Positions 5,709-40,015 are shown, counted from the first letter of the stretch. The stretch: 45,260 nt of DNA from an uncultured Rickettsiales bacterium (GCA_964529155.1 CAZGVV010000008.1:1-45260); one strand, 5' to 3'. Notes: generated by a model from the letters alone, not told the origin. Made by a program: numbers and translations.

Positions 5709-5723
5709 ATGGAAGACGTGGTT

Positions 5724-5992: not shown

Positions 5993-6013
5993 GACTCGCG
6001 ACTCGCGACTCGC
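5993..6013. repeat. 3 x 7-bp perfect tandem repeat (GACTCGC)3; right arm of the inverted repeat
   Basis: GACTCGC GACTCGC GACTCGC read directly, 18 nt upstream of the sucD ATG. Confidence 0.9.
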
Positions 6014-6030
6014 ATCAAGAGGAGTAAGAC

Positions 6031-6914: not shown

Positions 6915-7289
6915 ATGATAGATAATCGCACCTCGTTTAACACACTCGTTAAAAATGTTGCTGATTTGAAAGGCTGGCGGCGCACCGCAAGCGGAGGCAT
7001 TGCCATTCGTTTTGATGAGGTTGAAAAGCAAAATACACCCGAAAATGAAGTATTGAATGCATTCCACCAATTGCAAGAACGTTCCGTTTTGCTCCCAACT
7101 AATTCACGTGGAAAAGATATTCATGCAATTATAATGCAATTTTCTGCTTCCTTAGCAACAAAGGAGGAGAAAGAAAGAGGCGTAATGCCTCCAGCATTTT
7201 ATGCACAAGGTAATACACTAAAAAATGCGATAGAAAATAATCCAGATTATAAAGCCAATTTGCAAAGGGCTTCTTTAGGACGCTTTTAA
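6915..7289 (+). CDS. hypothetical protein (AT-rich orphan ORF, no family recognised)
   Basis: 124-aa ORF starts 2 nt after the sucD stop, with AAGGTGG 7 nt upstream. Codon first positions are purine-rich. It is visibly more AT-rich than its flanks. Confidence 0.5.
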   Translation: MIDNRTSFNTLVKNVADLKGWRRTASGGIAIRFDEVEKQNTPENEVLNAFHQLQERSVLLPTNSRGKDIHAIIMQFSASLATKEEKERGVMPPAFYAQGNTLKNAIENNPDYKANLQRASLGRF

Positions 7290-18695: not shown

Positions 18696-18732
18696 CGGAA
18701 TTAATCTTACACTACCTAATGCCGATAAATTT

Positions 18733-20274: not shown

Positions 20275-20296
20275 AAAATCCTAATACGTAATGTGG

Positions 20297-22261: not shown

Positions 22262-22361
22262 TATAATTCGCTTTTTATCAACCACTTGCGTAGAATTGGT
22301 TTTCTTGATACCATAAGTATACGTTTTTATAGGATCTATAAATATAATTGTGTATGAAGCA

Positions 22362-22414
22362 GCGTATGAATACGCATTTACTTGTAAACGCAAAGGTGCT
22401 GGACCAGCGCCTTT
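22362..22414 (+). promoter_or_regulatory. three adjacent palindromes/stem-loops in the capD-like/sucA divergent intergenic region (candidate operator or leader structure)
   Basis: GCGTAT-GA-ATACGC at 22362-22375. GCATTTAC-TT-GTAAACGC at 22374-22391 (7 of 8 pairs). AAAGGTGCTGG-A-CCAGCGCCTTT at 22392-22414 (11 pairs including one G-U). Confidence 0.4.
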
Positions 22415-22459
22415 AAATCGGCATAATACCTATTTTACACTCACATTGCATGGCATTTT

Positions 22460-25351
22460 ATGACTGTACCCTTTGACTCCACGCCTATTTTTTCCGGTAA
22501 CGCCACTTTTGTAGAAGAGTTGTATGAGCGTTATTTGCAGAATCCGCAAAATGTAGATGCCGCATGGCGTGATTTTTTCCGTGAAACAACGAATGGCTCC
22601 GGCAGTTCAGCACGAAGCGCTTCATGGGCCGCCGTAAAAAGCCAGGTTATCGGCGCAAAAGAAGAGGTTTCTGACACCAAGCCGTCCGCTAAGGATAAAG
22701 GCAAACCTGTTGCAACCAGCCAAGAAGTAATTGAAGCGGCAACGCATGATTCCATCCGCGCCATGATGATGATTCGCGCGTATCGCGTGCGTGGACATTT
22801 GATTGCCAATTTAGACCCGTTAGGTTTAGAAGGCGGCGAGCCGCACCCGGAATTAACACCAGAGCATTACGGCTTTACTGAGGCCGATTATGATAAGGAC
22901 ATTTTTCTCGATGGCGTGCTGGGCCTGAAAAAAGCTAAGCTGCGCGATATTATTTCTGCATTGCGTCAAACGTATTGCGGCACGGTGGGCGTAGAGTTCA
23001 TGCATATCCAGCACCCCGAGCAAAAAAGCTGGATCCAGCATCGCATTGAAGACACACGCGGCCGCCCACAATTCAGCGCCGAAGACAAGAAGGCGATTTG
23101 GAATTCACTTGTAGAAGTAGAAGCGTTTGAGCAATTCCTGCAAGTGAAATATCCCGGCACGAAGCGGTTCTCGGCCCAAGGCGGCGATGCTATGATTCCA
23201 GGTTTGGAATCTATTATCAAAACGGCTTCAAGCCTTGGCGTGCAGGAAATTATTTTCGGCATGCCACACCGTGGGCGTATGAATGTGCTCACCACCATTA
23301 TGGGCAAACCTTATGCGGAATTGCTTTCTATTTTCCAGGGCAATTTAGATTTTCCGGAATGGATTAACTCATCCGGTGACGTAAAATACCATTTGGGCGC
23401 AACGACGGACCGTAATGTAAACGGCAAGAATGTGCACATGAGCTTGCTGTCCAACCCATCGCATTTAGAGGCTGTTGATCCCGTAGTCTGCGGTAAGGTG
23501 CGTGCAAAGCTTGATATTCGCGGTGATTCCGAAGCGAAAACATCCGTAATGGGTGTATTGATGCATGGTGACGCAGCGTTTTGTGGCCAAGGTAGCGTTG
23601 CTGAGACACTGGCACTTTCCGAGCTTCGTGGTTACCGCACAGGCGGCACGATCCATTTGATCGTCAACAATCAGATCGGCTTCACCACCAGCCCCAAATA
23701 TAGCCGTTTTACCCCCTACCCCTCCGACATTGCCAAAGCCGTGCAAGCACCGATTTTCCATGTGAACGGGGATGACCCGGAAGCTGTGGCATTCGTATGT
23801 CGTCTAGCCGCCGAGTTCCGCCAGGAATTCAAGCGCGATGTGGTCGTGGATATGTTCTGCTACCGTAAATACGGGCATAATGAATCCGATGAACCGATGT
23901 TTACGCAACCGTTAATGTACAAAGAGATCGCGCGTCATGCCCTACCGGCGCATATTTATTCCGACCGCCTGGTGGCGGAAGGTACGGTTTCAAAGGAAGA
24001 GGTTGACCAGCGTTTCGCGGAATTTAAATCCAAATACGAAAAAGATTACGAAACCGCAAAAAACTTTAAGCCGAATAAGGCAGACTGGCTGGAAGGTAAC
24101 TGGACCGGGTTTGAACCTCCCAAAACAGAGCAGGAAGAACCGGTTACTGGCCTGGAAGAAAACATGCTCAAAGCCATTGGGGAGGCGCTTTCTATGCAAC
24201 CCCAAGGCGTACATCTCAACTCGAAAATTATTCGTCAGTTGGAAGCAAAACGTAAGATGGTCGAAACCGGCGCTGGCTTTGACTGGGCAACCGCGGAAGC
24301 GTTGGCGTTTGGAACATTGCTGGCGGAAGAGCATCCGGTGCGTTTATCGGGCCAGGATTGTGGCCGTGGCACCTTCTCGCAACGGCATGCCGTATTGGTG
24401 GACCAGGACAATGAGCAGCGCTATGTGCCGTTAAATCATGTGGCTGAGGTGCAATCGCAATTTGAGGTGATTGACTCTTCTTTGTCTGAATTCGCCATTC
24501 TTGGCTTTGAATATGGCTATTCGCTGGGGCAACCACAAGGCCTTACCATGTGGGAAGCGCAATTTGGTGATTTTGCAAACGGCGCTCAGGTAATTATCGA
24601 TCAATTTATTGCCAGCGGTGAGAGCAAATGGCTGCGTATGTCAGGGCTTACCATGCTGCTACCGCATGGCTATGAGGGCCAGGGACCAGAGCATTCCAGC
24701 GCACGATTAGAACGTTATTTGCAGCTCTGCGCTGAAGATAATATGCAGGTGGCCAATTGCACAACACCTGCCAACTATTTCCATATTCTGCGCCGCCAGA
24801 TTCACCGCAATTATCGCAAACCATTGATTTTGATGACACCTAAATCACTACTGCGCCATAAGCTTGCGGTATCGAAATTGGCAGATATGGGTAAAAATAC
24901 CCGCTTCCTGCGCTTAATTCCGGAGACAGAAAAACTTATCAAAGAAGACAAGGTAAAACGCGTCGTGCTGACGTCCGGCAAGGTCTATTACGATTTATTC
25001 GAAGCCCGTGCAGAAAAAGGCATTGATGATGTAGCCATCATCCGCATTGAGCAATATTATCCCTTCCCGGCACGCGAACTGAAAACCGAGCTTGCGCGTT
25101 ACAAAAACGCCGAAATCGTCTGGTGCCAGGAAGAGCCACGTAATATGGGCGCCTGGTTCTTTGTCCGCGAACGTATTGAAGCGGTACTGGACAGCTTAGG
25201 CCGCCTGAATGAACGCGTGAGCTATGTAGGCCGGATTGAAGCGGCTTCCCCTGCCGCTGGATACCTCAAGATTCATGAGCGCCAGCAGAAAGAATTGGTG
25301 GATAATGCACTTGAAGTAAAGGGCGCCAAGCTTAAAGCAGCCAAGGCATAA
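22460..25351 (+). CDS. sucA: 2-oxoglutarate dehydrogenase E1 component
   Basis: 963 aa. N-terminus FSGNATFVEELYERYLQNPQNVDAAWRDFF. ThDP-binding region (GMPHRGRMNVL, HGDAAFCGQG) and transketolase-like C-terminus. Confidence 0.95.
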   Translation: MTVPFDSTPIFSGNATFVEELYERYLQNPQNVDAAWRDFFRETTNGSGSSARSASWAAVKSQVIGAKEEVSDTKPSAKDKGKPVATSQEVIEAATHDSIRAMMMIRAYRVRGHLIANLDPLGLEGGEPHPELTPEHYGFTEADYDKDIFLDGVLGLKKAKLRDIISALRQTYCGTVGVEFMHIQHPEQKSWIQHRIEDTRGRPQFSAEDKKAIWNSLVEVEAFEQFLQVKYPGTKRFSAQGGDAMIPGLESIIKTASSLGVQEIIFGMPHRGRMNVLTTIMGKPYAELLSIFQGNLDFPEWINSSGDVKYHLGATTDRNVNGKNVHMSLLSNPSHLEAVDPVVCGKVRAKLDIRGDSEAKTSVMGVLMHGDAAFCGQGSVAETLALSELRGYRTGGTIHLIVNNQIGFTTSPKYSRFTPYPSDIAKAVQAPIFHVNGDDPEAVAFVCRLAAEFRQEFKRDVVVDMFCYRKYGHNESDEPMFTQPLMYKEIARHALPAHIYSDRLVAEGTVSKEEVDQRFAEFKSKYEKDYETAKNFKPNKADWLEGNWTGFEPPKTEQEEPVTGLEENMLKAIGEALSMQPQGVHLNSKIIRQLEAKRKMVETGAGFDWATAEALAFGTLLAEEHPVRLSGQDCGRGTFSQRHAVLVDQDNEQRYVPLNHVAEVQSQFEVIDSSLSEFAILGFEYGYSLGQPQGLTMWEAQFGDFANGAQVIIDQFIASGESKWLRMSGLTMLLPHGYEGQGPEHSSARLERYLQLCAEDNMQVANCTTPANYFHILRRQIHRNYRKPLILMTPKSLLRHKLAVSKLADMGKNTRFLRLIPETEKLIKEDKVKRVVLTSGKVYYDLFEARAEKGIDDVAIIRIEQYYPFPARELKTELARYKNAEIVWCQEEPRNMGAWFFVRERIEAVLDSLGRLNERVSYVGRIEAASPAAGYLKIHERQQKELVDNALEVKGAKLKAAKA

Positions 25352-25476
25352 ATACTTACGGTCTTTTGGTAGGTTGAAGGGTGAAACGGCAGGATACGCA
25401 TTTTTTGCTGGCTTCCCTTGCGTCTGTCCTTTAAATAGGGCCTTCACCCTACTTCAATCCATATAAAGGCCTTATT

Positions 25477-26661
25477 ATGCCCGGTGAAATCGTTGTTCCT
25501 AATCTTGGCGAATCTGTTTCGGAAGCCACTGTTTCTAAATGGTTTAAAAAAGTCGGCGATGCCGTGGCGGTCGACGAACCTGTGGCGGAACTCGAAACCG
25601 ATAAGGTGACGATGGAAGTGAATGCGCCTGCCGCAGGTGCATTGAAAGAAATCAAGGTTAAAGAAGGCCAGACGGTGGAAGTTGGCACATTACTCGGCTT
25701 GATTGAGGTCGGCGCCAAAGGCGCTGCCGCTGCCCAGCCTGCCCCTGCCGCGAAACCTGCTGCACCCGCCGCCACTCCTGCCCCTGCAGCACAAAAAACC
25801 GGCGTTAACCCTGCCACTGATTCCGGACCGGCCGTGTCTAAAATGCTGGCAGAAACCGGCAAAAATGCAGCCTCCATTCAAGGCACCGGCAAAGATGGCC
25901 GCTTAACCAAGGGTGATGTGATGAGTGCTTCTGCTCCGGCTGCAGTATCTACCTCTGCTGGCCCACGCGAGGAACGCGTAAAAATGTCTAAATTGCGCCA
26001 GGTTATTGCTAAGCGCCTGAAAGAATCGCAAAATACTGCAGCCATTTTGACCACGTTCAACGAAATTGACATGTCGAACGTAATTAATCTGCGCAATGAG
26101 TACAAAGATGCGTTTGAGAAAAAACACGGCATTCGCTTAGGTTTCATGGGCTTTTTTGTGAAAGCTGCCGTGAATGCCTTGAAAGAAGTTGCTGCGGTGA
26201 ACGCCAGTATTGAGGGCGATGAGGTCATTTATAAAAACCATTATGACATCGGTGTTGCGGTAGGCACGGAGCAAGGCTTAGTGGTGCCGGTAATTCGCAA
26301 TTGCGACCAGTTGTCCATCATGGAAATCGAGGCGGAAATCGCCCGTATGGCAAAGAAAGCCCGCGACGGCGCGTTGGCGTTGGCAGATTTGCAAGGCGGT
26401 ACGTTCACTATTTCCAACGGTGGTGTCTATGGCTCTCTGATGAGCACGCCGATCATCAACCCACCGCAATCCGGCATCTTAGGTATGCATAAAACCGAGG
26501 AACGCCCTATTGCCGTAAAAGGCCAGGTAGTGATTCGCCCAATGATGTATGTGGCGCTTTCTTATGATCACCGCATTATTGACGGCAAAGAGTCGGTAAC
26601 GTTCCTGGTGCGCGTGAAGGAAGGCGTGGAAGATCCACGCCGCTTGCTGCTGGGGGTATAA
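25477..26661 (+). CDS. sucB: dihydrolipoyllysine-residue succinyltransferase (E2 of 2-oxoglutarate dehydrogenase)
   Basis: Lipoyl domain ([11 protein letters not shown]), Ala/Pro-rich linker, E3-binding segment, and catalytic domain with SYDHRIIDG. Confidence 0.95.
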
Positions 26662-26668
26662 TTGTTTA

Positions 26669-26686
26669 TTCCCGTAAAGACGGGAA
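26669..26686 (+). other. stem-loop in the sucB-lpdA spacer (TTCCCGT-AAAG-ACGGGAA)
   Basis: 7-bp perfect inverted repeat beginning 8 nt after the sucB stop. It resembles the hairpin after ettA (CCCG...CGGG core). Confidence 0.3.
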
Positions 26687-26745
26687 TTCAGCGCTTATTC
26701 AACGTAATCCTGCGGCACTCACGCGGGAATGGTAGTGGAGATTAT

Positions 26746-28137
26746 ATGACCAATCAATTCGATCTTATCGTCATCGGTGGCGGCCCCGGCGGGTATGTGG
26801 CGGCCATTCGCGCAGCACAGCTTGGAATGTCGGTGGCATGCGTGGAAAAACGCGGAACGCTCGGCGGCACGTGCTTGAACGTGGGGTGCATACCCTCTAA
26901 AGCATTGCTGAATTCTTCCCATAAATTTGAGGATGCACGCGAACATTTTGCCTCTTACGGTATCAAAGCCAAGGTGGAGCTAGATCTGCCCGGCATGCTG
27001 AAGCAAAAGGATGATGCGGTTTCCAGCCTCACCAAAGGCATCGAAGGCTTGTTCAAAAAGAATAAAGTGACGTATGTGCAAGGGGCGGCAGCGTTTAGCG
27101 GCAAGAATGAAATCACGGTGAATAGCAAAGATACCTACACCGCTAAAAACTTTATCATTGCCACCGGGTCCGAATCCATGCCTCTGCCCGGCGTAGAGGT
27201 AGATGAGAAACGAATTGTAAGCTCCACGGGTGCACTTACGCTTTCTAAAGTGCCTGAGCATATGGTAGTGGTTGGTGGCGGTGTTATCGGCCTCGAGCTT
27301 GGCTCAGTATGGCGTAGGCTGGGCGCAAAAGTGACCGTCGTGGAATTCCTGGAGCGCATTGGCGGGGCCATGGATGCAGAAGTAGCAAAGCAGTTCCAGC
27401 GCGCATTGGAAAAACAGGGATTTGCTTTCAAGCTTGGCATGAAAGTGACCGGCGCAAAGCAGGATGCAAAATCCATTACCTTGAATTTGGAACCGGCCAA
27501 AGGTGGCGCAGCAGAAACTCTAAGCGCTGATGTGGTGCTGGTATCCATCGGCCGCCGTCCGTATACGCAAGGATTGAATTTGGAAGCGGCAGGATTGAAA
27601 ACCGACGAACGCGGCCGCATTCCTGTCGATGCCCATTTGCGTACGAATGTTTCCCATATCTATGCGATTGGCGATGTAATCGTTGGCCCTATGCTTGCAC
27701 ACAAAGCAGAAGAAGAAGGCGTTGCGGTTGCGGAAACCCTGGCAGGGCAAAAAGGGCATGTGAATTACGATGTCATTCCCGGCGTAGTTTATACACATCC
27801 GGAAGTCGCTAATGTTGGCAAAACGGAGGAAGAGCTGAAGGCGGCAGGCGTGGCTTATAAAGTTGGAAAATTTCCGATGATGGCCAATAGCCGTGCCCGT
27901 TCTGTGGCGGATGCAGAAGGATTTGTCAAAATTCTGGCCGATGCTACGACAGACCGGGTGCTTGGCGTACATATTCTGGCGGCGGATGCAGGGACAATCA
28001 TTCACGAGGCCTGTATTGCTATGGAATTCGGCGCATCTTCTGAGGATATTGCCCGTACATGCCATGCCCATCCAACCCTCAATGAAGCGGTGAAAGAAGC
28101 GGCGCTTGCAGTGGCAGGACGACCAATTCATATTTAA
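26746..28137 (+). CDS. lpdA: dihydrolipoyl dehydrogenase (E3)
   Basis: [16 protein letters not shown] motif, redox-active [10 protein letters not shown], and HAHPTLNE at the C-terminus. ATG 26746 is preceded by GGTAGTGGAG. The ORF-track start 26662 is a non-homologous extension. Confidence 0.93.
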
Positions 28138-29220: not shown

Positions 29221-29790
29221 TTGCATTTCTTCAGCCAATTTTTTTCTTCTTCTACTAAACACCACGCCCATGATGTGTATGCCGCATTGGTAACACAGGC
29301 ACGCAAGCCGGTGCTCTATATGACATGCGGCATCCCCGACACTTTAGATGGCCGCTTTGACGCAATTTTGTTGCATTTATTTTTGCTGCAGCGCCGTTTA
29401 AAAGAGCTGGCCACTCATGAAGCAGCTACGCTTGGCCGCCACATTCAGGAGGCCTTCATTTCTGACATGGATCGCGGGCTGCGTGAGCTTGGAGTAGGTG
29501 ATACGGGTGTTTCTCACCGCATTCGCAAAATGGCCAGCGCATTGCTTGGCCGCATTGCCAGCTATGACGCTGCCTGGGGAGATGAGAAAGCGTTTCGGGA
29601 TGCGCTGACTCGCAACCTATACCGGGGCAATCATCCGACGGGGGCACAGTTAGATGCACTCATGCAACAACTTCGTCAGGTGGCAGACTGCTTGCATAGC
29701 TGGAATAGTCAAAACATACCTTTTACCCCTACTCACGCGATCAACAATTCTTTGGCGCCATCCGAAAAAAGTGCTGTAGACGCGCTGTAA
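29221..29790 (+). CDS. ubiquinol-cytochrome c chaperone (Cbp3-like) family protein
   Basis: VYAALVTQARKPVLY..GIPDTLDGRFDAILLHLFLLQRRL..DMDRGLRELGVGDTGVSHRIRKMASALLGR fits the family pattern. The ORF-track start 29110 overlaps rpoH. In-frame TTG 29221 gives a family-typical length of about 189 aa. The start is uncertain. Confidence 0.7.
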   Translation: MHFFSQFFSSSTKHHAHDVYAALVTQARKPVLYMTCGIPDTLDGRFDAILLHLFLLQRRLKELATHEAATLGRHIQEAFISDMDRGLRELGVGDTGVSHRIRKMASALLGRIASYDAAWGDEKAFRDALTRNLYRGNHPTGAQLDALMQQLRQVADCLHSWNSQNIPFTPTHAINNSLAPSEKSAVDAL

Positions 29791-30407
29791 GCCTTATTTC
29801 CGATACCGCTGGGTAAAATCGGCTTTTTCAACTCGTTGAACGATTTTAACGCCATGCCTGATAAGGGTGTTTGTGCAAGCGTAGTAGTAGCAAAAAATGA
29901 CGATTCAGATACGGCATCTTCTTGCATAGAGGCAAGCTTTGCGCTTAACGAATTATCGGTTTTACTGGCATGCGCTTGCGTTTCTAAAACGTGGCTAAAA
30001 ATACTCATGGGATTTGTTTGTTCCGGCGTGACTTGCGGAAGCTTTGGAATATTTTCCGGCTGATAGCTCATTATTAAGCCACTGGCTTGAGGATCTGGGG
30101 GTTGCTGGCCTAATATATGAGCCATGAAGAGGGTAGGAAAACTATGGATTACTCCACCTGGAGCAGGCCCCAACAGCCCATTAAATGCACTTGATGCCGC
30201 AGCAGGAGTTTCTATCTCCGCTTTTGCAGACGCATATGCAGCGCTATTTTTTGATTCGCTTCCTACCCGCACATCCGCTATGGGTGCCGCCACATGCGTG
30301 ACAGGTATACGACCAATCACAGGTGTTTCTGAGACAATGGCACTTGCCACCGAGGGAGTCGGCGTGATACTGGATGTAGGTGAAAACGGCGCATTGATAG
30401 CGTACAT
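29733..30407 (-). CDS. hypothetical Ser/Ala/Pro/Thr-rich protein (probably disordered), no family recognised
   Basis: 224-aa ORF. Codon first positions are strongly purine/G-rich in the sampled stretch 30241-30300 (ACG CAT GTG GCG GCA CCC ATA GCG GAT GTG CGG GTA GGA AGC GAA), better than the opposite-strand ORFs. Confidence 0.5.
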   Translation of the reverse strand: MYAINAPFSPTSSITPTPSVASAIVSETPVIGRIPVTHVAAPIADVRVGSESKNSAAYASAKAEIETPAAASSAFNGLLGPAPGGVIHSFPTLFMAHILGQQPPDPQASGLIMSYQPENIPKLPQVTPEQTNPMSIFSHVLETQAHASKTDNSLSAKLASMQEDAVSESSFFATTTLAQTPLSGMALKSFNELKKPILPSGIGNKAYSASTALFSDGAKELLIA

Positions 30408-30455: not shown

Positions 30456-31079
30456 ATGACCATCCGCGCCCTCCTGGTATTTACCTTTCTTTTACTGGCA
30501 CTTACCGCCACCACGCTGTGGATGACGCAGGGTGATGCCCGTAACACCCCTCCCTCAGTACAAAACCAAGCCCAGATTGGTGGCGCCTTTACGCTCACGG
30601 ATCAGCGTGGTCAAACGGTAAAAGATATGGATTTTAGAGGCCGATTGATGTTGGTTTACTTTGGTTTCACCAATTGCCCAGACCAATGCCCCTTAGCACT
30701 TGGCACGATTACCCAAGCTTTAGAAAAATTGGGCGGGGACTCCGCCCAAGTCGCACCGATTTTTATTACCGTTGATCCAACCCGGGATACACCTGAACGC
30801 TTGAAAGAATATTTAGGTAATTTTTCTCCCATGCTGATTGGCTTGACGGGAACGGATGCGCAAATCGCAGCGGCAACTAAAACCTATAAAGCGTATTATT
30901 CAGCGCCCGTATTGCAACACGATGAGCATGGGCATGCGGATCATGCCGAACATGCTTATAATGTCGATCATTCAGGCTTTTTCTATTTGATGGGACGCGA
31001 TGGCGCTTATCTTACGCACTTCTCTGCTGATATCACTGCGGAGCAATTAAGCACCGCGATTAAAACCTACCTCCACTAG
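30456..31079 (+). CDS. SCO1/SenC family copper chaperone (cytochrome oxidase assembly)
   Basis: N-terminal TM anchor, thioredoxin-fold CPDQCP motif and downstream DHSGFFYLM histidine motif. 207 aa. Confidence 0.85.
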   Translation: MTIRALLVFTFLLLALTATTLWMTQGDARNTPPSVQNQAQIGGAFTLTDQRGQTVKDMDFRGRLMLVYFGFTNCPDQCPLALGTITQALEKLGGDSAQVAPIFITVDPTRDTPERLKEYLGNFSPMLIGLTGTDAQIAAATKTYKAYYSAPVLQHDEHGHADHAEHAYNVDHSGFFYLMGRDGAYLTHFSADITAEQLSTAIKTYLH

Positions 31080-31081
31080 TT

Positions 31082-31720
31082 ATGCCCCAGCTGCGACGCG
31101 GTTTAATGTTTGTGCTTTCCTCCCCCTCTGGGGCAGGCAAGACAACGCTTTCACGCCGCCTGCTGGCACAGCAACAAGCCATTGATGGCGATTGCCCGAC
31201 CATGGCAATGTCCGTATCTGTTACTACCCGCCCTATGCGGCCAGGAGAGATTAGTGGACGCGATTATTTTTTCGTCGAACACACGGAATGTGCCCGCATG
31301 ATTGAAGCAGAAGAATTGCTGGAGCACGCGCAAGTATTTGATCATCACTATGGAACGCCCAAGCATTTTGTTTCTGAGCAGTTAGAACGCGGGATAGATG
31401 TTTTATTTGATATTGACTGGCAAGGTACGCGCCAGTTAGCAGCACAAGCACGGGCCGATTTGGTGAGCGTATTTATTTTACCCCCCTCCATGGCTGAACT
31501 GGAACGCAGGCTACGCACACGGGCTCAGGATAGCGAGGAAATCGTACAACGCCGCATGAGCAAAGCACGCGATGAAATCAGCCATTGGCAGGAATATGAT
31601 TACGTCCTGGTCAATGATGATCTGGATGCGACCTTGGCACGTATCAATGCCATTTTAATGGTTGAGCGCACAAAACGAGCACGTCAGTGCTGGCTAGAAG
31701 GATTTATCAGCGCATTATAG
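31082..31720 (+). CDS. gmk: guanylate kinase
   Basis: P-loop SSPSGAGKTTL, SVTTRPMRPGE, HYGTP and DIDWQG motifs. 212 aa. Confidence 0.92.
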   Translation: MPQLRRGLMFVLSSPSGAGKTTLSRRLLAQQQAIDGDCPTMAMSVSVTTRPMRPGEISGRDYFFVEHTECARMIEAEELLEHAQVFDHHYGTPKHFVSEQLERGIDVLFDIDWQGTRQLAAQARADLVSVFILPPSMAELERRLRTRAQDSEEIVQRRMSKARDEISHWQEYDYVLVNDDLDATLARINAILMVERTKRARQCWLEGFISAL

Positions 31721-32535
31721 CTGTTGGACAGGCGACACCATTCCTCGACATTTAATGTCTCTGCCCGGCGCGTGGGATCAATATTCGACCGGGTGAGTAA
31801 GCGCTCTGCTTCGGGAAACAATGATTTCAGTGCCGCACGTAACATTTTCCGGCGGTTGCCGAATCCGGCAGCAAGTACTTTTTCCAGCGCTCGCTTATCA
31901 GCCGCATAGAGCGGAGTAGGCCTTGGAATTAATGTCAGCACCGTAGAATGTACTTTTGGTGGCGGTGAAAAGGCACCGGGTGGGAGCACAAAGCGGGGCA
32001 CTACGTCACAAAGCCATTGGGCCATAACCGACAACCGTCCATAGTCTTTCGTATTCGGTGCGGATGCGATGCGATCTGCGACTTCCTGCTGAAACATCAG
32101 GGTAAGCGATTGGTAGGCGGTGGGATCAGCATAGATGTCCTCAAGCCAGCGGACTAATAACGCGGTACCCACATTATAGGGCAAATTCGCAACTATTTTG
32201 CGCGGGGCATTACACAATGTGGGGAGGGATATTTTCATGGCATCTGCATGCACAACGCGTAATTTATCGCTACTTACCGCCACCAATTCCTGCAGGGCTT
32301 CCACGCAACGTGCGTCCATTTCCACAGCAACCAGGCTGGCTGCTTTCGTCGCCAATACCGCACGTGTAAGCCCCCCCGGGCCGGGGCCAATTTCAATGAT
32401 GTTGCAACCTGCCATATCGCCCGCCTGAGCAGCGATTTTGGCGCAGATATTTTCATCAAGCAGGAAATGCTGACCCAGCGATTTTTTGGTGGCCAGCCCG
32501 TATTGGGCGATGGTGGATTTAAGGGAGGAGAGCAT
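31684..32535 (-). CDS. rsmA: 16S rRNA (adenine1518-N6/adenine1519-N6)-dimethyltransferase RsmA/KsgA
   Basis: KSLGQHFLLD, SAM motif IIEIGPGPGGLT, and NLPYNVGT. 283 aa. Confidence 0.92.
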   Translation of the reverse strand: MLSSLKSTIAQYGLATKKSLGQHFLLDENICAKIAAQAGDMAGCNIIEIGPGPGGLTRAVLATKAASLVAVEMDARCVEALQELVAVSSDKLRVVHADAMKISLPTLCNAPRKIVANLPYNVGTALLVRWLEDIYADPTAYQSLTLMFQQEVADRIASAPNTKDYGRLSVMAQWLCDVVPRFVLPPGAFSPPPKVHSTVLTLIPRPTPLYAADKRALEKVLAAGFGNRRKMLRAALKSLFPEAERLLTRSNIDPTRRAETLNVEEWCRLSNSYNALINPSSQH

Positions 32536-32579
32536 GCATTAACAGAGGTAGTGATATGAAAATCTTCATATCGCTTGTA

Positions 32580-33296
32580 CTATTCCTCTTCTGCCTTTTC
32601 ACCCGGAGGCACTTCTTCCAACGCGTAGCCTGCCGAGCGAACGGTACGAATGAGGTCCTGCTGACGTCCATCAAAATCGAGGCCTTTGCGCAGGCGGCGG
32701 ATGTGTACGTCTACCGTGCGCAGTTCGACATAAATATCATGGCCCCATACCGCATCAAGCAATTGCTCGCGCGAGAACACGCGGTTTGGGTGCTCCAGCA
32801 AATAACGTAGCAGGCTGAACTCGGTAGGGCTTAGGTGAATTTCCGTGCTGTTTCGGAACACTTTATGGGCTGCAACATCCATGGAAATATCGGCAAAGCC
32901 GAGCGTTTTTTCAGTTAATGCAGGACGGAAACGCCGAAATACAGCACGAATACGTGCCACTAATTCAGCAGGAGAAAAAGGTTTTACCAGATAATCATCG
33001 GCGCCTGCATCGAGGCCACGGATGCGGTCCCCTTCTTCACCGCGGGCGGAGAGCATGATGATAGGAGTTGCCTTGGTTTCAGCATGCCAACGCAACTGCC
33101 GGCATACATCGATGCCACTCATGGAGGGCAACATCCAGTCCAGCACAACAATGTCTGGGCGAACTTCTTTGACCAATGCCACCGCTTCTTCGCCGTCGCC
33201 GGTCGAGTATACACGGAAGCCTTCACGCTCCAGGTTATAACGCAGCAGCGTAACGATTGCCGCCTCGTCTTCCACAATCAAAACCGATGTCTCCAA
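32580..33296 (-). CDS. phoB: phosphate regulon response regulator PhoB (OmpR family)
   Basis: Receiver domain (VLIVEDEAAIV, VVLDWMLPSMSG, MLSARGEE, DDYLVKPF) plus winged helix (RTVDVHIRRLRKGL..IRTVRSAGYAL). TTG start with GGGAGA 7 nt upstream. Confidence 0.85.
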   Translation of the reverse strand: METSVLIVEDEAAIVTLLRYNLEREGFRVYSTGDGEEAVALVKEVRPDIVVLDWMLPSMSGIDVCRQLRWHAETKATPIIMLSARGEEGDRIRGLDAGADDYLVKPFSPAELVARIRAVFRRFRPALTEKTLGFADISMDVAAHKVFRNSTEIHLSPTEFSLLRYLLEHPNRVFSREQLLDAVWGHDIYVELRTVDVHIRRLRKGLDFDGRQQDLIRTVRSAGYALEEVPPGEKAEEE

Positions 33297-33383
33297 GCCG
33301 CATTCTCCCTATGGGGAATATAAAAGCGGCTTTACCATAACCTATTTTTTCGCAAAGGAAAAGTCATCCTTGCATATTTTACG

Positions 33384-36300
33384 CTACATTCGTCTTCCCA
33401 TGGGGATAAGTTGCAATTCTGGGCTATTATCCCGGGTTTGGGTGAGCTGCGTTAACACATTATAAAGGTTATTGATGACATTGAGCCGGTCTGAATAGTG
33501 CTGCCTATCGTCCTCTTTGTCATACCGCATCGTATGCCAGACTTCATGCGCCGCCGCCATCATGCCATGGGCGATCTTGTCCAGGGCTTTGACCAGTGGC
33601 CGCTCCGGTGGCAGGTGCGTATCTGCTTGCCGAATTTTTTCGGCAAAGCCTTTTGGGTTACCTAATTTATCCAGCAGGGTATCCAGACCATTTAATTTGC
33701 TGCATACTGTTTTTACAAATTCCTGCTGACCGCTTAGCTCACCCATCATACTCGCTACGGCAGGATCATAGTTTTTAATACCGGAGCGCATCACTTCAAT
33801 GGCACCGCGGAAGAATTTATGGTTTTTCATTTCGGTGAGAAACTTTGCTCCGCTCTCACAGTGAATGCCTAATTTCTGCAAATCTTCCTGGTTCATAGCG
33901 CTAAATTTCTCCAACGCTTCGCGGGTTCCAACCAAAAATGCCGGCATGTCTGCCATCTCAAATCCATATTCTTTGGTGATCATGCGGATATCATCATAGG
34001 ATTTTTCAATGAATTTTTGATGCGCGTCTTGATATGCTTTTTTTTGTTCTGGCGTTGCCCCCTCACCTGGCGGTGTTGGTGGTTGCGGTTTTTCAGAGCG
34101 TGCGGTCGGGCGTGACGTATTGGCTTTATTTAATGGCATGGCGGCTAAAAACGTCTGTGCCGCTGGATTTTTGCGTACGGTTTCCTGGAAAATTTCAGAT
34201 GCCTTATCTGCAAGCCACGTGATGCCTTTTTCATATTCGGCCATTTGCTTTTTTACATCATCATCATTCTCACGCTCTTTTGCCCGTTCACGATTGGTGA
34301 GCAAGCCAAGCATGATACTGGCGATATTATATTTCGCATGCGCCGGTGAGGTGCCCATGGCGGTTGGCAGATCAGCCTGGATGGTAGCGTCGTGGATGAG
34401 CTGATTGATCTGCAATTCATCGGGCACCATGTCTTCCATCACACCCAGCTCAACTGTGCCGCCACGATCCGTGCCGCGGCCAGGTCCACGCATGAAGCGC
34501 ACTTCGATACCCGCTTTTTTGTATTTTTCATGCAGCGTTCGCATGGCTTTGAAAATTGCCCAGCGCGAACCGAGCATGCCGCCAGTTGCTGCTGAATCAC
34601 TGAATCCAACCATGAATTCCGCCACAGGTTTTCCAGCATGCAATTTTTCGCCGCGTGCTTTGTAATAGCTTCCAGCGATTTCTTTATCCGCTATCAGCGC
34701 ATCGGCAATTTTTTCTGCGTTTTGCAAATCTTCAATCGTCTCCAGTAGCGGCATAATACCAATGTCAGTACGCTTCACTGTGCCAGTATTTTTTTCAATC
34801 TCGGCAAGCCCGGTTTCCTGCATCAATTTTAGCATGATGTAGAAATCTTTTGGCGCGCTGAAATTGGCGATCTGATAACGCGTCGCCACTTTATCATTAG
34901 GGAATTCATCGATGGAATGTTTCAACACAACCATGCGGCGAATGATGTTCATGAGAATGGCGCGATCCCCTTTTTTATCAATTCCTTTTAATTTTGTACG
35001 TAATCCATCCGAATTCAAATAATCCGTTTCCGCTAAATAAGTACTTACGCGATCCTGTTCTTCTGACGGCAATGAAACTCTAAAGCCCATTCGTTCGCTG
35101 TAATCATCAAATGTAAATCCCAGTTTGAACGCCTTATTATTGACAGTAAATTCGCTAACTGCTTCCAGAGCATTTTTAAATTGGGTAGCAATCGGGTAGC
35201 CACCATTATGCTGAATCTGCTCTAAATGCTCAAATGTCACTTTTGACAAATCTTTTTCATGCTCATCACGTTTTACGTTTGGCTCAATGATGTTCCAATT
35301 ATTTTTGATGAGAACACTATTTTCTTTAATAATTTGATTCCACGTCTGATGATATTTTCCAACTACTGCTAGGGTGTCGTCTTTAATTTGCTCAGGAATG
35401 AGATTGTATCCGCGTTTAATAACTTCTTGGGCGAAATCCGTCTTATCTTGATCGTTTAACTGAAGAAATATCGAGTTAAGCGGATCAACCCAAACTTTAC
35501 TTTTACGACCGTTTTTTTCACTATTGCCATTGTCTTTAGAATCGTGGCCATTATCCCCATTGTTGTAATTTTCTTTCCGCGCCTGCATAAATTCATCGCA
35601 GAAATCATTGAATTTTTGCTTATTTACTTCTTTTCCTTCGTGATTGCCTTTCTTGGCCCAATAATATTTGTTTTGAAACAACGAACTCATCAGCTGTTGA
35701 TGATCACGCGAATTTTGGCGGAAATCGAGGATAGGACCGGTATATTTTCCGTCCTTCACGTCGTCGTGAATAAAACGGTATAATTCCACTGCGGTGGATG
35801 CCGGTCTTCCGTCGGCATCAGCAGTACGCCCCCAGCTGCGCTCTTCATAGAGAGCTTTGTCTTTTACTTTTAGCGTTTCAAGCAGATCATTGTGCTGAGC
35901 ATATTTGTTTTGCATCGCTTGTACGGCTTCATCCCAGTCATTTTTCACTTCCGCAAAGGCCGCTTTAATTTTAGCAAGATTATCCACTTCCTTTAAATGC
36001 TCTTCTTGAATGGTGACCTGGTTGAAAGGCGTCAGTGGATTGTTTTTAGCACTGCTGATTTTGGCGTGTTCCACCCAGCTATTGAGCAATGCTTCTGTAT
36101 TTTTGAATGTATCAAGTCCTGCGCTTGCTACGGCAAGGGGTGGGATTTCTCCTTCTTTGGAAAGCCATAATTTACTAGAGTTTTCTGATTTAAATTCTTC
36201 TGCAATAGCTTGCTGATTCTGCTGCTCTTGAACTTTTCCACCTTCTAACAACTCGGTAAGCTGCTGTACATTTTGCCTTCCCCACGCTGAATGCCAGCCC

Positions 36301-36872
36301 ACAGGGTGTACGGTATGAATGAAGCTGACAAGCATCATGTCCAAAGATTCCCCAAGCGTTTTAAGCTTAGATTCAGCATTATCCTGATTTAGTATGCCTT
36401 CTAAATAGCGACTGAAGCGTTCCTTTGGCGAGGGAAAATGCACGGCAGCTTCATAGTGATGCACAGCTTCAAGCACCATGGAATCTAACACCATCAAATT
36501 GGTTAAAGCCGTAAGTTCTGAGTTTAGCTTACCCCCTTTTTGGGGATAAAGTGTTGCGAGTGCTTCTTGCTGAATGGTGCCTAATATTTCTACGCGCTTT
36601 TCCGTAGTTGCAGCGGCATATGCATCTGTATTTTTTATACATGCATTGAGAAAATCCAACGTTTCTTGTGTGACCAATCCTTTTTCAACGGCAATTTCAT
36701 GCAACCGATCAATTAATAGATCGCTGTTATGCGAACGCGTGGCGTCTACCTGATTGAGGGGATCTTTTTCTTTAAGTAAATCACGAAGAGTATCCCTTTT
36801 TTCGCTCTCATTTTGTTTGGACAATTTTTGTATTAAAGTGTCATTTCTTTTCTTATTGAAAGCAAAACTCAT
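33384..36872 (-). CDS. highly divergent, expanded phosphoenolpyruvate carboxylase-like protein (1162 aa); function uncertain
   Basis: Collinear matches to PEPC landmark motifs: IHTVHPVG (TAHPTE), SWGRTADADGRP (SWMGGDRDGNP), LDFRQNS (IDIRQES), MPLLETIEDL (PLFETLDDL), VGFSDSAATGG (IGYSDSAKDAG) and FMRGPGRGTDRGG (FHGRGGSIGRGG). Several catalytic positions are substituted, and a large insertion is present. Confidence 0.75.
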   Translation of the reverse strand: MSFAFNKKRNDTLIQKLSKQNESEKRDTLRDLLKEKDPLNQVDATRSHNSDLLIDRLHEIAVEKGLVTQETLDFLNACIKNTDAYAAATTEKRVEILGTIQQEALATLYPQKGGKLNSELTALTNLMVLDSMVLEAVHHYEAAVHFPSPKERFSRYLEGILNQDNAESKLKTLGESLDMMLVSFIHTVHPVGWHSAWGRQNVQQLTELLEGGKVQEQQNQQAIAEEFKSENSSKLWLSKEGEIPPLAVASAGLDTFKNTEALLNSWVEHAKISSAKNNPLTPFNQVTIQEEHLKEVDNLAKIKAAFAEVKNDWDEAVQAMQNKYAQHNDLLETLKVKDKALYEERSWGRTADADGRPASTAVELYRFIHDDVKDGKYTGPILDFRQNSRDHQQLMSSLFQNKYYWAKKGNHEGKEVNKQKFNDFCDEFMQARKENYNNGDNGHDSKDNGNSEKNGRKSKVWVDPLNSIFLQLNDQDKTDFAQEVIKRGYNLIPEQIKDDTLAVVGKYHQTWNQIIKENSVLIKNNWNIIEPNVKRDEHEKDLSKVTFEHLEQIQHNGGYPIATQFKNALEAVSEFTVNNKAFKLGFTFDDYSERMGFRVSLPSEEQDRVSTYLAETDYLNSDGLRTKLKGIDKKGDRAILMNIIRRMVVLKHSIDEFPNDKVATRYQIANFSAPKDFYIMLKLMQETGLAEIEKNTGTVKRTDIGIMPLLETIEDLQNAEKIADALIADKEIAGSYYKARGEKLHAGKPVAEFMVGFSDSAATGGMLGSRWAIFKAMRTLHEKYKKAGIEVRFMRGPGRGTDRGGTVELGVMEDMVPDELQINQLIHDATIQADLPTAMGTSPAHAKYNIASIMLGLLTNRERAKERENDDDVKKQMAEYEKGITWLADKASEIFQETVRKNPAAQTFLAAMPLNKANTSRPTARSEKPQPPTPPGEGATPEQKKAYQDAHQKFIEKSYDDIRMITKEYGFEMADMPAFLVGTREALEKFSAMNQEDLQKLGIHCESGAKFLTEMKNHKFFRGAIEVMRSGIKNYDPAVASMMGELSGQQEFVKTVCSKLNGLDTLLDKLGNPKGFAEKIRQADTHLPPERPLVKALDKIAHGMMAAAHEVWHTMRYDKEDDRQHYSDRLNVINNLYNVLTQLTQTRDNSPELQLIPMGRRM

Positions 36873-36968
36873 AAAACCCTCAGACTTGGTTATTTAAAGG
36901 TTAATGACACTATCTGCATATCAACATCCTGCCAAGCGATTATTTATTATTATTAAGGGATTCACCCC

Positions 36969-37085
36969 CTAATTTAAGTTCTTCAGGAAGATTTGCACTT
37001 TAACAGTCGTGCCCTGGCTAAAGTCGCGGTCACTGGTAAAATCGTGGCCTGCCGTGGTTTGAACAGTAAGACATTCATTTTGAAA
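36969..37085 (-). other. out-of-frame 3' coding remnant of lptD (canonical C-terminal beta-strands)
   Basis: A different frame from the lptD ORF reads FQNECLTVQTTAGHDFTSDRDFSQGTTVKVQIFLKNLN*. This follows the LptD C-terminal pattern (compare E. coli GVQYSSCCYAIRVGYERKL...AIGFNIELRGL). Confidence 0.65.
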
Positions 37086-37114
37086 TACAAAAGATAGTTT
37101 TGAAAAATCTCTCC

Positions 37115-39226
37115 CTAGATAATAATAATTCTGAACTTTATATTGCGACAGAACTTTTGGAATATAAGTCCGGCATTTGTGCCTACAAATGCATTACGTA
37201 TCAAATCTCGGTTAGCACCAGCACTTAGTGTCCAGTATTTACCCAGTTTCACCCAGGTACCACCTGTAATATTTTCTTCATTACCTAGCACCGGATCATT
37301 ATTCAAATCCAGATAATTCACACTAAATCCCAAACGCTCCCAACTAAGGCTCGCATTCAACTCGCTTCGGTTAGGGGTAAGCGTATCCTTATCCAAACGA
37401 AACCGATAAGACAGATCTATAGGCAAATAGCTTATTCCCAACATGCCAACATAATCGGAGAAATGGCTTTTTAAATCGTTTGATACAGGGAAAAGTGGAT
37501 CATTATCGATCCGATATGACTGGCCTAACAAACCTCTAATTGCCGTATTTTTTTCTAAGAACCGTTGGCTTCGCATCCCATATTTCATGCGCGGACCACT
37601 CTCCACGCGATCATAGCCTGCGAAGCGATTAGCGGAGAACAAATTCACATCGGTAAATTCAGGAATACGGCTGTCTTCGTTTGGAATACGCGAAGAATTG
37701 CCACTTCCCGGGCTGGCAATGGCTTGCACGACAGGCTCTAGGGTCAGGTTGCTATGGGCATAGCGGCTAATTAATGGGTAACGCCATTCAAGCATCGTTT
37801 GCGGCACTAAACGTCCGGCGTTGCCATCAAAGCTTTTTCCATTCGGCAATGCCTGCTGACTGACGTCATAGGCATCCCCTCGTAAGCTGGTGCTGAATTC
37901 AAAAATATGCCCATCAGCGGTTAGATAAGGCACACTCCATTTTCCTTGCATCGACAAGCGCCGGCTATCCGCCCCGACATCACGGGTTAGCGCCATGGCA
38001 TCTGCGTTGAGGGAAAAACGGGAATTCCATGCCATTGGCACTGTTTCATAATAGGCATCAAGTAACGGCAATACCAACGGACTGGTATGGGGATCAGCAT
38101 CAATTTGCATCCCTTGAAATGTAAATGCTTGTACGGACGCATAGTTACGGCCTGATTCACCAGCATAATTAAAATCTTCCGCATACAAACGCGATGTCAA
38201 TACAGGGTCATAATTGATGTCATACCGGCGAAGATAGGTGTCATCTGTAGTGCGGCGAATGCGAAAGCCCCAATCCGAATTATCCGTAATAGAGAAATCC
38301 CCATTGCCAAAGAAATGTCCGCGCAAAGAACCACCTTCTTCCGGCACGTTATTTGCACTCTTACTTTGAGGGGCTGTGATGCTGCCGTCCAGCTTCATGG
38401 CACCTTCATTAAAACGCTGGCGGTACTCCCCAAACAATATGGGCGAATCAAGCGCTATAATAACTGGCGTGATAGTCAAATCACGGTCTGGAGCAATCGA
38501 CCAATAAAGTGGTATTCGTATAATACTGCCCAAATTGGAATTACGCTGATAAGTAGGTGTCAGAATACCACTTTTATTATCCGCACCGGGCATAGTCTGC
38601 GAAAAATACGGCGTGTAAAGCACCGGGACACCATAGAAATCCATATAGGCATCACGGTAAACAATACGCTGCTCGCCTTTGTCTATTGTGGCTTTATCAG
38701 CCTGAATTTGCCAGAGCGGTGTTTTAGGCGTTTTTTTATCGTCGCAAACAACAAAGCATGGCGAATAAACAGCACGGTATAATTTAGTGACCAGTTCATT
38801 TTCACGCTTAGCTTTGCTGGCAACCAGCAGCGAATTGTCGGATAAGCGTTCTTTAAATTCCGTTACAACGCCCGTTTTCATGTCGTTGTTGAGTTCCATG
38901 TCATCGGCAAAATATACATTGCCGGATGATTCCATTACGCTGACATGGCCTTCGGCAAATACGGTATTATTGCGTTGATCATAGGTCAAGGTATCCGCAA
39001 GCAAGACAGTTTCGCCCTGAGACACCTCCACATGCCCTTCAGCAATAAGGAAATCATGGTCTTTATCGTATTCCATTTGATCGGCCGTCAGCAGTACTGG
39101 CTCACCAGAGGATACTGCCTTCGAGGAAGGCCCCGACATTTTTGCCGCCGCAGGCATACTGTGGCTTCCCCAACCCAGGATGCCCAACAAAAAAACTATT
39201 CTATATAAAACAACAGCTTTATTCAT
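37115..39226 (-). CDS. lptD: LPS-assembly protein LptD (3' end apparently disrupted; the ORF terminates in a non-homologous tail)
   Basis: Signal peptide from ATG 39226 (MNKAVVLYRIVFLLGILGWGSHSMPAAA). OstA-like N-domain (LLTADQMEYDKDHDFLIAEGHVEV, GNVYFADDMEL) and a large beta-barrel region. The ORF-track TTG start is at 39262. The tail FQKFCRNIKFRIIII* is atypical. Confidence 0.85.
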   Translation of the reverse strand: MNKAVVLYRIVFLLGILGWGSHSMPAAAKMSGPSSKAVSSGEPVLLTADQMEYDKDHDFLIAEGHVEVSQGETVLLADTLTYDQRNNTVFAEGHVSVMESSGNVYFADDMELNNDMKTGVVTEFKERLSDNSLLVASKAKRENELVTKLYRAVYSPCFVVCDDKKTPKTPLWQIQADKATIDKGEQRIVYRDAYMDFYGVPVLYTPYFSQTMPGADNKSGILTPTYQRNSNLGSIIRIPLYWSIAPDRDLTITPVIIALDSPILFGEYRQRFNEGAMKLDGSITAPQSKSANNVPEEGGSLRGHFFGNGDFSITDNSDWGFRIRRTTDDTYLRRYDINYDPVLTSRLYAEDFNYAGESGRNYASVQAFTFQGMQIDADPHTSPLVLPLLDAYYETVPMAWNSRFSLNADAMALTRDVGADSRRLSMQGKWSVPYLTADGHIFEFSTSLRGDAYDVSQQALPNGKSFDGNAGRLVPQTMLEWRYPLISRYAHSNLTLEPVVQAIASPGSGNSSRIPNEDSRIPEFTDVNLFSANRFAGYDRVESGPRMKYGMRSQRFLEKNTAIRGLLGQSYRIDNDPLFPVSNDLKSHFSDYVGMLGISYLPIDLSYRFRLDKDTLTPNRSELNASLSWERLGFSVNYLDLNNDPVLGNEENITGGTWVKLGKYWTLSAGANRDLIRNAFVGTNAGLIFQKFCRNIKFRIIII

Positions 39227-39307
39227 TTTTGCGATACTTACTTTACACAAGGCATACGCCAACTTATCTTTCTTAAAACAGTTGCTATTTAAAGGCTAGG
39301 AATTGAT

Positions 39308-39336: not shown

Positions 39337-39364
39337 ATTGTTAATTTTAATCAGTGGGATGTAT

Positions 39365-40015
39365 ATGTCTATCGCTACTAATCATTTAGCTTCTGATAAT
39401 TCAAATACGATTACGCCTCCTAGTTCTGTGTTACATGGTAGCGGAACGGGTGATGAAACCCCGGCATTACAACCTATGAAGCTTGCATTCCGGCTTGCCG
39501 GTGTCCAAGAGGATAAGATAAATCACGGTAGGTTTACTGTAGAAGATTTGGTGGCTGCAGCACCATTGCTTGATCCTCTAGTAGCTATCCGCAATGCAGT
39601 TAAGGCTAAGGTAAAAGCAGCTGTTGGTGTAAAACCTGCCGTTAAAGGAAAAGAAAATTTTGTACAAATTGAATTTCCGTTTCCTTATGCTAAACGTGCT
39701 TTAGTTCCTCTTGAAGAGCGTGATAAATACCCCCTTACCGAGCAAGAAAAAACCAATGATGCCATTGCACGTGAAATAAAAAACTTATTAGAAAATGCGA
39801 AAGAAGATAATGATAACATTAAGGTTTCAAATTGCACCTCAACTGATAAGAAAGGCAATAAATATATGGCCTTTAAAATTTCAGCTGGTGACGTACTAAA
39901 ATTAGATGTTGAGAAATTAAATAGCTATGCTTTAGCACAAGAAAAACCCGGCTCAAAAATTACAGAACACTCTTCTTTGCCTTTCAGCTTGCCTCACAAC
40001 CATGTACTGGCTTAA
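39365..40015 (+). CDS. hypothetical protein (AT-rich orphan, about 216 aa, Lys/Ala/Val-rich central segment), no family recognised
   Basis: Open frame with purine-rich codon first positions, its own promoter-like and terminator-like signals, and GGGA 7 nt before ATG 39365. Alternative starts are at 39359 and 39338. Confidence 0.55.
   Translation: MSIATNHLASDNSNTITPPSSVLHGSGTGDETPALQPMKLAFRLAGVQEDKINHGRFTVEDLVAAAPLLDPLVAIRNAVKAKVKAAVGVKPAVKGKENFVQIEFPFPYAKRALVPLEERDKYPLTEQEKTNDAIAREIKNLLENAKEDNDNIKVSNCTSTDKKGNKYMAFKISAGDVLKLDVEKLNSYALAQEKPGSKITEHSSLPFSLPHNHVLA

Follow-up and report, generated by a model that had tools for sequence, protein, structure and literature searches.

A long phosphoenolpyruvate carboxylase-like protein from an uncultured Rickettsiales bacterium and its apparently deep-branching family

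The gene, its predicted fold and its family

We analyzed a stretch of 45,260 nucleotides from an uncultured Rickettsiales bacterium (GCA_964529155.1 CAZGVV010000008.1:1-45260), here called the window. Its minus strand carries a gene for a long protein that resembles phosphoenolpyruvate (PEP) carboxylase (PEPC). The open reading frame (ORF) is intact, with an ATG start, 1162 codons and a stop, and the product has 1162 amino acids (aa). The features of the gene are listed in Table 1. Promoter and terminator scans returned sites no more numerous than in shuffled sequence, and an Rfam search of the window gave no match.

The protein is predicted to be a full-length PEPC-fold protein. An AlphaFold2 model was built from a family alignment of 48 full-length sequences, the set to which all conservation counts out of 48 refer. 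It had a mean predicted local distance difference test score (pLDDT) of 86.2 and a predicted template modeling score (pTM) of 0.88. The model contains eight barrel strands (aa 181-186, 342-346, 381-387, 663-669, 705-710, 750-756, 790-796 and 826-831). The top 50 Foldseek matches in the PDB were all PEPCs, at 12-14% identity and target-normalized template modeling (TM) scores of 0.55-0.63. The best were maize PEPC (6mgi; E = 7e-21, TM 0.61) and E. coli PEPC (1jqn; E = 2.8e-18). The family profile matched a profile of eight canonical PEPCs with a probability of 100% (E 1.8e-45 in local mode and 6.9e-65 in global mode). The initial annotation had described a strongly diverged and expanded protein, collinear with PEPC from end to end. 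The confident model, the Foldseek matches and the profile-profile comparison agree on this.

Sequence models of known PEPCs matched less completely. The Pfam PEPcase model (PF00311) scored 88.2 bits against a gathering score of 22.4. This is significant, with partial coverage: the match is limited to aa 649-927, which correspond to profile positions 478-737 of 919, the central third. The NCBIfam PEPC equivalog NF000584 scored 84.9 bits against a cut-off of 815. Nine other family members gave 91-148 bits with Pfam PEPcase, over the C-terminal half only, and 91-146 bits with NF000584. The archaeal-type PEPC models matched weakly over the region of strands 5-7 and stayed under their cut-offs (PF14010, 18.3 bits versus 25; TIGR02751, 21.4 versus 146). 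A direct sequence search of the PDB retrieved E. coli PEPC at E = 6e-7, over residues 705-812 only.

Table 1. Features of the PEPC-like gene and its product, with positions counted from the first nucleotide of the window
Feature	Position	Strand	Correspondence	Basis
Complete coding sequence, long PEPC-like protein	33384..36872	-		ORF list, Pfam, AlphaFold2 model, Foldseek
GAGGG, ribosome-binding-site-like motif, 4 nt 5' of the ATG	36877..36881	-		direct sequence reading
N-terminal helical region, aa 1-180, about 20% family identity	36333..36872	-		model, profile alignment
HTVHPVG, end of barrel strand 1	36297..36317	-	H189 = E. coli catalytic H138	
SWGRTADADGRP, after barrel strand 2	35802..35837	-	W347 = E. 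coli W248, hydrophobic pocket	
ILDFRQNS, barrel strand 3	35709..35732	-	R385 = E. coli R396 (Flaveria R450)	segment hhalign, model
Insert specific to the family, between barrel strands 3 and 4 (aa 388-662), with helices and a small beta-sheet	34887..35711	-		alignment, model
VATRYQIANF, barrel strand 4	34860..34889	-	E. coli 465-496	alignment, segment comparison
MPLLETIEDL, barrel strand 5	34725..34754	-	L709 = L504 (pocket); E711 = E506 (metal ligand)	
VGFSDSAATGG, after barrel strand 6	34578..34610	-	D759 = D543 (metal ligand); A762 at K546 position	
Gly/Arg loop FMRGPGRGTDRGG	34458..34496	-	R795, P797, R799 at H579, R581, G583 positions; R803-G-G = R587-G-G	
TIQAD, end of barrel strand 8	34371..34385	-	Q832 = E. 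coli Q613, invariant in both families	
NTSRPTAR, equivalent of the GSRPxxR mobile loop II	34098..34121	-	R921 = R699; R925 = R703 (each 47/48)	
Pro-rich loop II extension, aa 926-959, 28 aa longer than in E. coli	33996..34097	-		alignment, model
DIRMITKEYGFEMAD, after loop II	33948..33992	-	R963 = E. coli R713 (Flaveria R767); contains K967	
C-terminal helical region, aa 1001-1162, poorly conserved	33387..33872	-		model, alignment

The largest addition is the insert between barrel strands 3 and 4. It is 200-295 aa long in 47 of the 48 members. Modeled alone, it reached a pLDDT of 83 and a pTM of 0.80. This model gave no match in the PDB (best E 6). The insert accounts for the long spacing between strands 3 and 5 (326 aa versus 110 in E. 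coli); strands 2 and 3 are 38 aa apart, versus 148 in E. coli. A role in regulation or in contacts between subunits of an oligomer is conceivable for this conserved insert of about 250 aa, which has no known structural relative.

Cluster representatives, 1.84 billion in all, were searched exhaustively with HMMER, and 52 proteins were retrieved at E <= 1e-30. These are 1000-1150 aa long and 28-37% identical to the query. A gap in scores follows: the next matches, at about 1e-14, are canonical PEPCs with lengths of about 900-940 aa, aligned over the central region only. At 50% identity the family comprises about 50 clusters. All 48 aligned members were monophyletic in a neighbor-joining tree against 59 other PEPC-type sequences (58 representatives and E. 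coli Ppc), and a long stem branch leads to them. The window protein has the whole set of features that defines the family: the insert, IANF on strand 4, R665, a loop of the G-R-G-R-G type, RAIxxEY and a place in the monophyletic group. On this tree and these scores, the family appears to be a separate, deep-branching PEPC clade that lies outside the known ones. The initial annotation had offered deep-branching membership as one reading, and it is borne out by the monophyly and the score gap, with no placement inside a known PEPC clade. Four types of PEPC are listed in a review from 2020 (PMC8100219), namely the bacterial, the plant-type, the plant bacterial-type and the archaeal-type enzymes. 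Our literature search found no paper describing the present clade.

The family clusters that we looked up were all singletons, one of which carries the IMG automatic name 'phosphoenolpyruvate carboxylase'. Among the genome hits, three were metagenome-assembled genomes (MAGs) labeled 'Rickettsiales bacterium', three were MAGs labeled 'Alphaproteobacteria bacterium' and one was a 'Proteobacteria' MAG. One more was a short contig binned as 'Candidatus Poribacteria'. Ten additional family loci came from metagenomes. A word-indexed homologue search with the single protein returned itself and one relative at 51% identity. The same kind of search with the family profile was dominated by canonical PEPCs of 894 aa.

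Three proteins of about 1000 aa (P0072, P0119 and P0140) were closer to the long family than to the canonical enzymes; they appear to be its more remote relatives. Their loop sequences differ and include HGFGQREARGG and DGAGWEPERGGGG. These proteins suggest further undescribed PEPC-like lineages. One homologue, in an Alphaproteobacteria MAG (JABDCD010000015.1, 6576-9837; locus L010, identical to L023), is split into two overlapping ORFs of 800 and 340 aa. Either this gene is a pseudogene with a frameshift or the contig was misassembled.

Active-site residues and probable function

Residues of E. coli Ppc were mapped with full-length and segment-level profile alignments. By these alignments, the family keeps, invariant or nearly so, the counterparts of the catalytic His, of the two metal ligands, of the three Arg residues at the PEP phosphate, of the hydrophobic pocket and of the loop Arg587. 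T187, H189 and P190 of the T-x-H-P motif (E. coli TAHPTE) are found in 48/48 members, as are L709 and E711, and M754 (the equivalent of E. coli M538) and D759. The Trp motif pairs with E. coli SWMGGDRDGNP, and its W347, D352 and R356 are invariant. R803-G-G is kept in 47/48 members and R963 in 47/48. Model confidence is lower for aa 921-930 in loop II. PEPC holds Mg2+ with a Glu and an Asp, and its conserved His deprotonates carboxyphosphate; CO2 and the enolate are shielded in a hydrophobic pocket (PMC10176493). In the Flaveria enzyme R450 and R767 are essential, K600 is part of the bicarbonate site, and residue 774 lies close to the sites of both PEP and HCO3- (PMC6363079).

The placement of strand 3 needed the segment-level comparison. 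PILDFRQNS was placed uniquely on E. coli 388-406 (hhalign E 1.7e-5, next best 0.72), and the model has a barrel strand at 381-387 that agrees with pairing LDFRQNS and IDIRQES. R385 and N387 are invariant. The full-length profile alignment set E. coli R396 opposite N532; the segment comparison and the strand order of the model ruled this out. We take W248, L504 and M538 to be the pocket residues, and we assume the roles of R581, R587 and R699 to be as in Kai et al. 2003.

Most of the motif pairs in the initial annotation stood up in the profile alignments. These were the N-terminal helix (DSMVLEAVHHYE, which aligns with E. coli FLNLANTAEQYH in the global profile alignment), HTVHPVG, the Trp motif, MPLLETIEDL, VGFSDSAATGG and the Gly/Arg loop. 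The pairing of LDFRQNS was right by segment comparison and model strand, and not by full-length alignment. TKEYGFEMAD does lie opposite WIFAWTQNR. The two C-terminal pairs, NNLYNVLTQ with LNVLQ and IPMGRRM with MRNTG, were set aside: the E. coli motifs align elsewhere in the global profile alignment, and the family has no conserved NTG.

Several regions differ from canonical PEPC. Strand 4 has an invariant, family-specific R665. In place of the ISM of canonical PEPC, it carries A669, N670 and F671, each with a conservation of at least 90%. The loop consensus of the family is GRGRGxDRGG versus the canonical GRGGxxGRGG, and the window protein has the variant RGPGRG. An extra Arg is present at the G583 position in 37/48 members, and His579 is not conserved. 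Only the Arg (R963) and the Ile remain of the RAIPWxFxWxQxR region. The window protein reads MITKEYGFEMAD over the rest, and RAIxxEYxxxxxD/G is the consensus of the family. The C-terminal (R/Q)NTG is absent; the window protein ends in IPMGRRM, and family termini vary. The columns aligned with the Asp/malate site of E. coli (K773, R832 and N881) are not conserved and read N, L and S in the window protein, in a C-terminal alignment that is weak (about 20% identity).

The initial annotation had listed substituted catalytic residues, and the replacements of H579 by R795, R581 by P797 and K546 by A762 are real. Their loss, as such, is not what the family suggests, since Lys967 and Arg795 covary with them. 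For the covariation counts, P0048 was added to the 48 aligned members. At position 762, which corresponds to K546 of the canonical SDSxKD motif and to Flaveria K600, 34 of these sequences have Lys or Arg and 15 have Ala; Lys is kept by 32/48 aligned members. Ala762 occurs with Lys967 in 15/15 cases, and Lys or Arg at 762 occurs with a residue other than Lys at 967 in 34/34 (Fisher p = 6e-13). The two states always change together, at least four times on the neighbor-joining tree. Position 967 corresponds to E. coli W717, four residues after R713. It lies within a model helix (964-973). The counterpart of Flaveria 774 is three to four residues away, and K967 should therefore face the same way as that residue. 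The loop gives a similar result. All seven members with Arg795 (the H579 position) are without Arg797 (the R581 position; p = 9e-6), and five of the seven, the window protein among them, have Pro797. Sequences outside the alignment obey both rules. The flagged substitutions thus look relocated rather than lost, the Lys from 762 to 967 and the loop Arg from 797 to 795. The relocated Lys and Arg would reach the same place in the active site. Most members keep both canonical residues, so the substitutions are sub-lineage variation and not a hallmark of the family.

We estimate a probability of about 0.6 that the gene encodes a catalytically competent, non-canonically regulated PEPC of an undescribed deep-branching clade. 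PEP and Mg2+ would be bound at the C-terminal mouth of the barrel. Bicarbonate would be used to form oxaloacetate, the presumed product, and this would replenish the tricarboxylic acid (TCA) cycle encoded on the same contig, whose 45 kb contain no canonical ppc or pyc. Control is probably unlike that of canonical PEPC, with the Asp/malate-site residues, the terminal NTG and WxFxWxQxR all missing.

Several points weigh against this reading. The NF000584 score is a tenth of the cut-off. The replaced WxFxWxQxR motif holds the Flaveria 774 position, near the PEP and HCO3- sites. The window protein has neither K546 nor R581 at the canonical position, and His579 is not conserved in the family. The covariation p-values ignore phylogeny beyond a parsimony count on a rough neighbor-joining tree. 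A canonical ppc or pyc may lie elsewhere in the genome, and the gene would then be a paralogue with another role.

A neofunctionalized PEPC-fold enzyme is a serious rival, at clearly lower odds. It would bind PEP or an analogue and a divalent metal and form the enolate, and the second half-reaction would be changed. Examples are hydrolysis of PEP or transfer of its phosphate, a different electrophile or acceptor, or a changed requirement for bicarbonate, and the insert would offer a site for a new partner or substrate. That WxFxWxQxR, beside the PEP and HCO3- sites, is lost throughout the family fits such a change. So do the unconserved His579, the extra Arg at the G583 position, the new invariant R665 with N670-F671 on strand 4, the conserved insert, the long stem branch and the scores far under the equivalog cut-off. 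However, residues specific to the carboxylation steps (the His138 and Arg587 equivalents and the W/L/M pocket) vary little or not at all. Every member that has lost the Lys of the bicarbonate site has gained one nearby, a sign that selection has continued to act on the same chemistry. The gene neighborhoods show no conserved gene that would indicate a new pathway.

We give a similarly modest weight to two broader departures. The protein may not be a PEPC at all and may belong to a new PEP-dependent class on the PEPC scaffold, in which the half-site that forms the enolate is retained and the rebuilt WxFxWxQxR region and the insert bring another second substrate or a protein partner. It may otherwise be a PEPC with wholly new regulation borne by the insert.

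A catalytically dead PEPC-like pseudoenzyme with a structural or regulatory role, which would fit the absence of K546, R581 and H579 from their canonical positions and the partial Pfam match, is very improbable, as the metal ligands, substrate Arg residues, His and pocket are invariant across about 50 clusters that share 20-38% identity elsewhere and the substitutions look compensated.

Composition, gene neighborhood and origin

The GC content of the gene is 43.8% and that of the window is 49.8%. The initial annotation had described much of the gene as far more AT-rich than its neighborhood. Its two counts are exact (16/60 G+C at 35281-35340 and 34/60 at 8281-8340), but the low GC is not gene-wide. 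The catalytic core is at 46-50%. Windows of 300 nt below 40% GC fall in two blocks. The first (starts 34901-35501, about 34900-35800) is largely the strand 3-4 insert. The second (starts 36551-37051, about 36550-37350) covers the N-terminal codons, about 107 of them, the spacer and the 3' end of lptD. Family identity in the low-GC parts of the gene is about 20-22%, versus 38% in the core. Neighbors are also AT-rich, with lptD at 45.5% and an orphan ORF (39338-40015) at 38%. Homologues in genomes of 43-55% GC are 1-3 points under their own flanks, and the closest homologue (51% identity) equals its flank.

Other 300-nt windows below 40% GC start at 22051-22301 (about 22050-22600) and at 6951-7001 (about 6950-7300). 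The former stretch spans the 5' end of a polysaccharide-biosynthesis gene (20297-22393, minus strand), a spacer and the start of sucA.

One relative shares part of the neighborhood. On a metagenome contig (ENA ERZ27314162; L012), the distance to SCO1 and gmk is similar to that in the window, and their relative orientation is the same. The two gmk products are 68% identical and the SCO1 products 46%. The PEPC-like protein is 28% identical overall to its homologue there and 41% in the core. The protein thus changes at a much higher rate than the adjacent housekeeping gene. The fast evolution proposed in the initial annotation therefore holds outside the core. Recent horizontal acquisition, which it had also raised, has little support: only the segments with the least conservation are low in GC, the neighbors are AT-rich, and the SCO1-gmk context is shared. 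We found no copy of the family on plasmids. A Ralstonia megaplasmid match with unusually long coverage was an ordinary ppc beside hemC, with a product that ends in GLRNSG.

The initial annotation had further speculated about a secreted effector. Such a protein, horizontally acquired by an intracellular or predatory bacterium, would alter the PEP and oxaloacetate pools of the host. The 6-point GC deficit of the gene, the different context of the 51%-identical homologue, the several genome hits labeled 'Rickettsiales bacterium', and the fast divergence with Lys/Asn/Glu-rich segments could be read in this way. The idea is nevertheless highly unlikely. The core matches the genome in composition, homologues are also 1-3 points under their flanks, and the relative with 68%-identical gmk has a similar SCO1-gmk neighborhood. 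The N-terminus is hydrophilic and no signal peptide is visible in the sequence (no secretion-signal predictor was run). Secretion-system genes did not adjoin the gene in any of 22 loci.

Gene content also argues against an intracellular host. Relatives adjoin genes for chemotaxis, the cell wall, RND efflux and cobalamin-dependent functions, and the genomes in which they sit include genes for B12-dependent Met synthase and GGDEF proteins. The chemotaxis, efflux, cobalamin-dependent and TCA genes point to ordinary free-living Alphaproteobacteria and not to reduced intracellular ones. Over the 22 loci no neighbor was conserved in more than three, and the gene stands alone among housekeeping genes. 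The contig itself carries mdh, sucCD, sucAB, lpd, purH, petABC, lptD, secA and a 1574-aa NAD-specific glutamate dehydrogenase (13971-18695).

The TCA genes of the window form two blocks, mdh with sucCD (2870-6912) and then sucA, sucB and lpd (22460-28137). The glutamate dehydrogenase gene and purH lie between them. SCO1/SenC, gmk and an rsmA-like gene are within a few kb of the PEPC-like gene on both contigs (17748-20413 on ERZ27314162 and 30456-32535 in the window). The minus-strand order at 31684-39262 is lptD, the PEPC-like gene, a phoB-like response regulator and rsmA (ksgA). In many Proteobacteria lptD, surA, pdxA and rsmA are contiguous. The PEPC-like gene and the regulator occupy the place expected for surA and pdxA. 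At one locus in an Alphaproteobacteria MAG (L007, 251-2245, plus strand), a gene for the propionyl-CoA carboxylase alpha subunit (biotin carboxylase) lies directly upstream on the same strand; this is a single case.

The ORF at 39338-40015 (plus strand, 225 aa) lies between lptD and petC and borders the AT-rich stretch to which the PEPC-like gene belongs. Its GC content is 38.3%, with 27% at third codon positions. Pfam gave no match for it, and a collection of 15 billion proteins does not contain its exact sequence. It may be an orphan gene, or the ORF may be spurious. Three more ORFs of 189-235 aa have no Pfam match (3891-4460, plus; 7286-7993, minus; 29733-30407, minus).

Significance and comparison with known PEPCs

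Beside the four listed types, the long family is a fifth, deep PEPC lineage, one that the curated equivalog models miss and that Pfam covers in part. It is also a natural experiment on which elements of the PEPC active site are indispensable. The His and the metal ligands are invariant, as are three of the Arg residues, the Arg of the loop and the pocket of W, L and M. Lys at the bicarbonate site and the counterpart of Arg581 appear to be movable to other positions. A new mode of regulation may reside in the folded insert. For uncultured Alphaproteobacteria, genome annotation and the reconstruction of metabolism depend on whether this protein is the anaplerotic enzyme. Engineers of carbon fixation could take an interest in a PEPC that lacks the Asp/malate site.

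The bacterial/plant-type PEPC (EC 4.1.1.31; PF00311, NF000584; structures 1JQN/1FIY and 1JQO/6MGI) has the whole-chain fold and strand order in common with the long family. The equivalents of H138, W248, R396, L504, E506, M538, D543, R587-G-G, Q613, R699, R703 and R713 are kept. Its gene likewise stands alone. The two differ in sequence (12-14% identity) and in strand spacing, and WxFxWxQxR and the terminal NTG are present in the bacterial/plant type but not in the long family. The long family is closer to this type than to the archaeal type.

The archaeal-type PEPC (PF14010, TIGR02751; 55-60 kDa) is a divergent member of the same superfamily. It is about half the size, at about 500-540 aa, and is thus shorter than canonical PEPC, whereas the long family is longer. 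The archaeal type was likewise missed by standard models until it was characterized (PMC8100219).

The bacterial-type PEPC of plants and algae (BTPC; about 116-118 kDa) offers a further parallel. O'Leary et al. 2011 are said to describe it as expanded, with an extra internal segment and altered regulation. Expansion by an internal segment would thus be common to BTPC and the long family. BTPC lies within the canonical bacterial/plant-type group and keeps the canonical motifs. The long family branches outside all 59 canonical sequences sampled, and its insert is predicted to be a folded domain.

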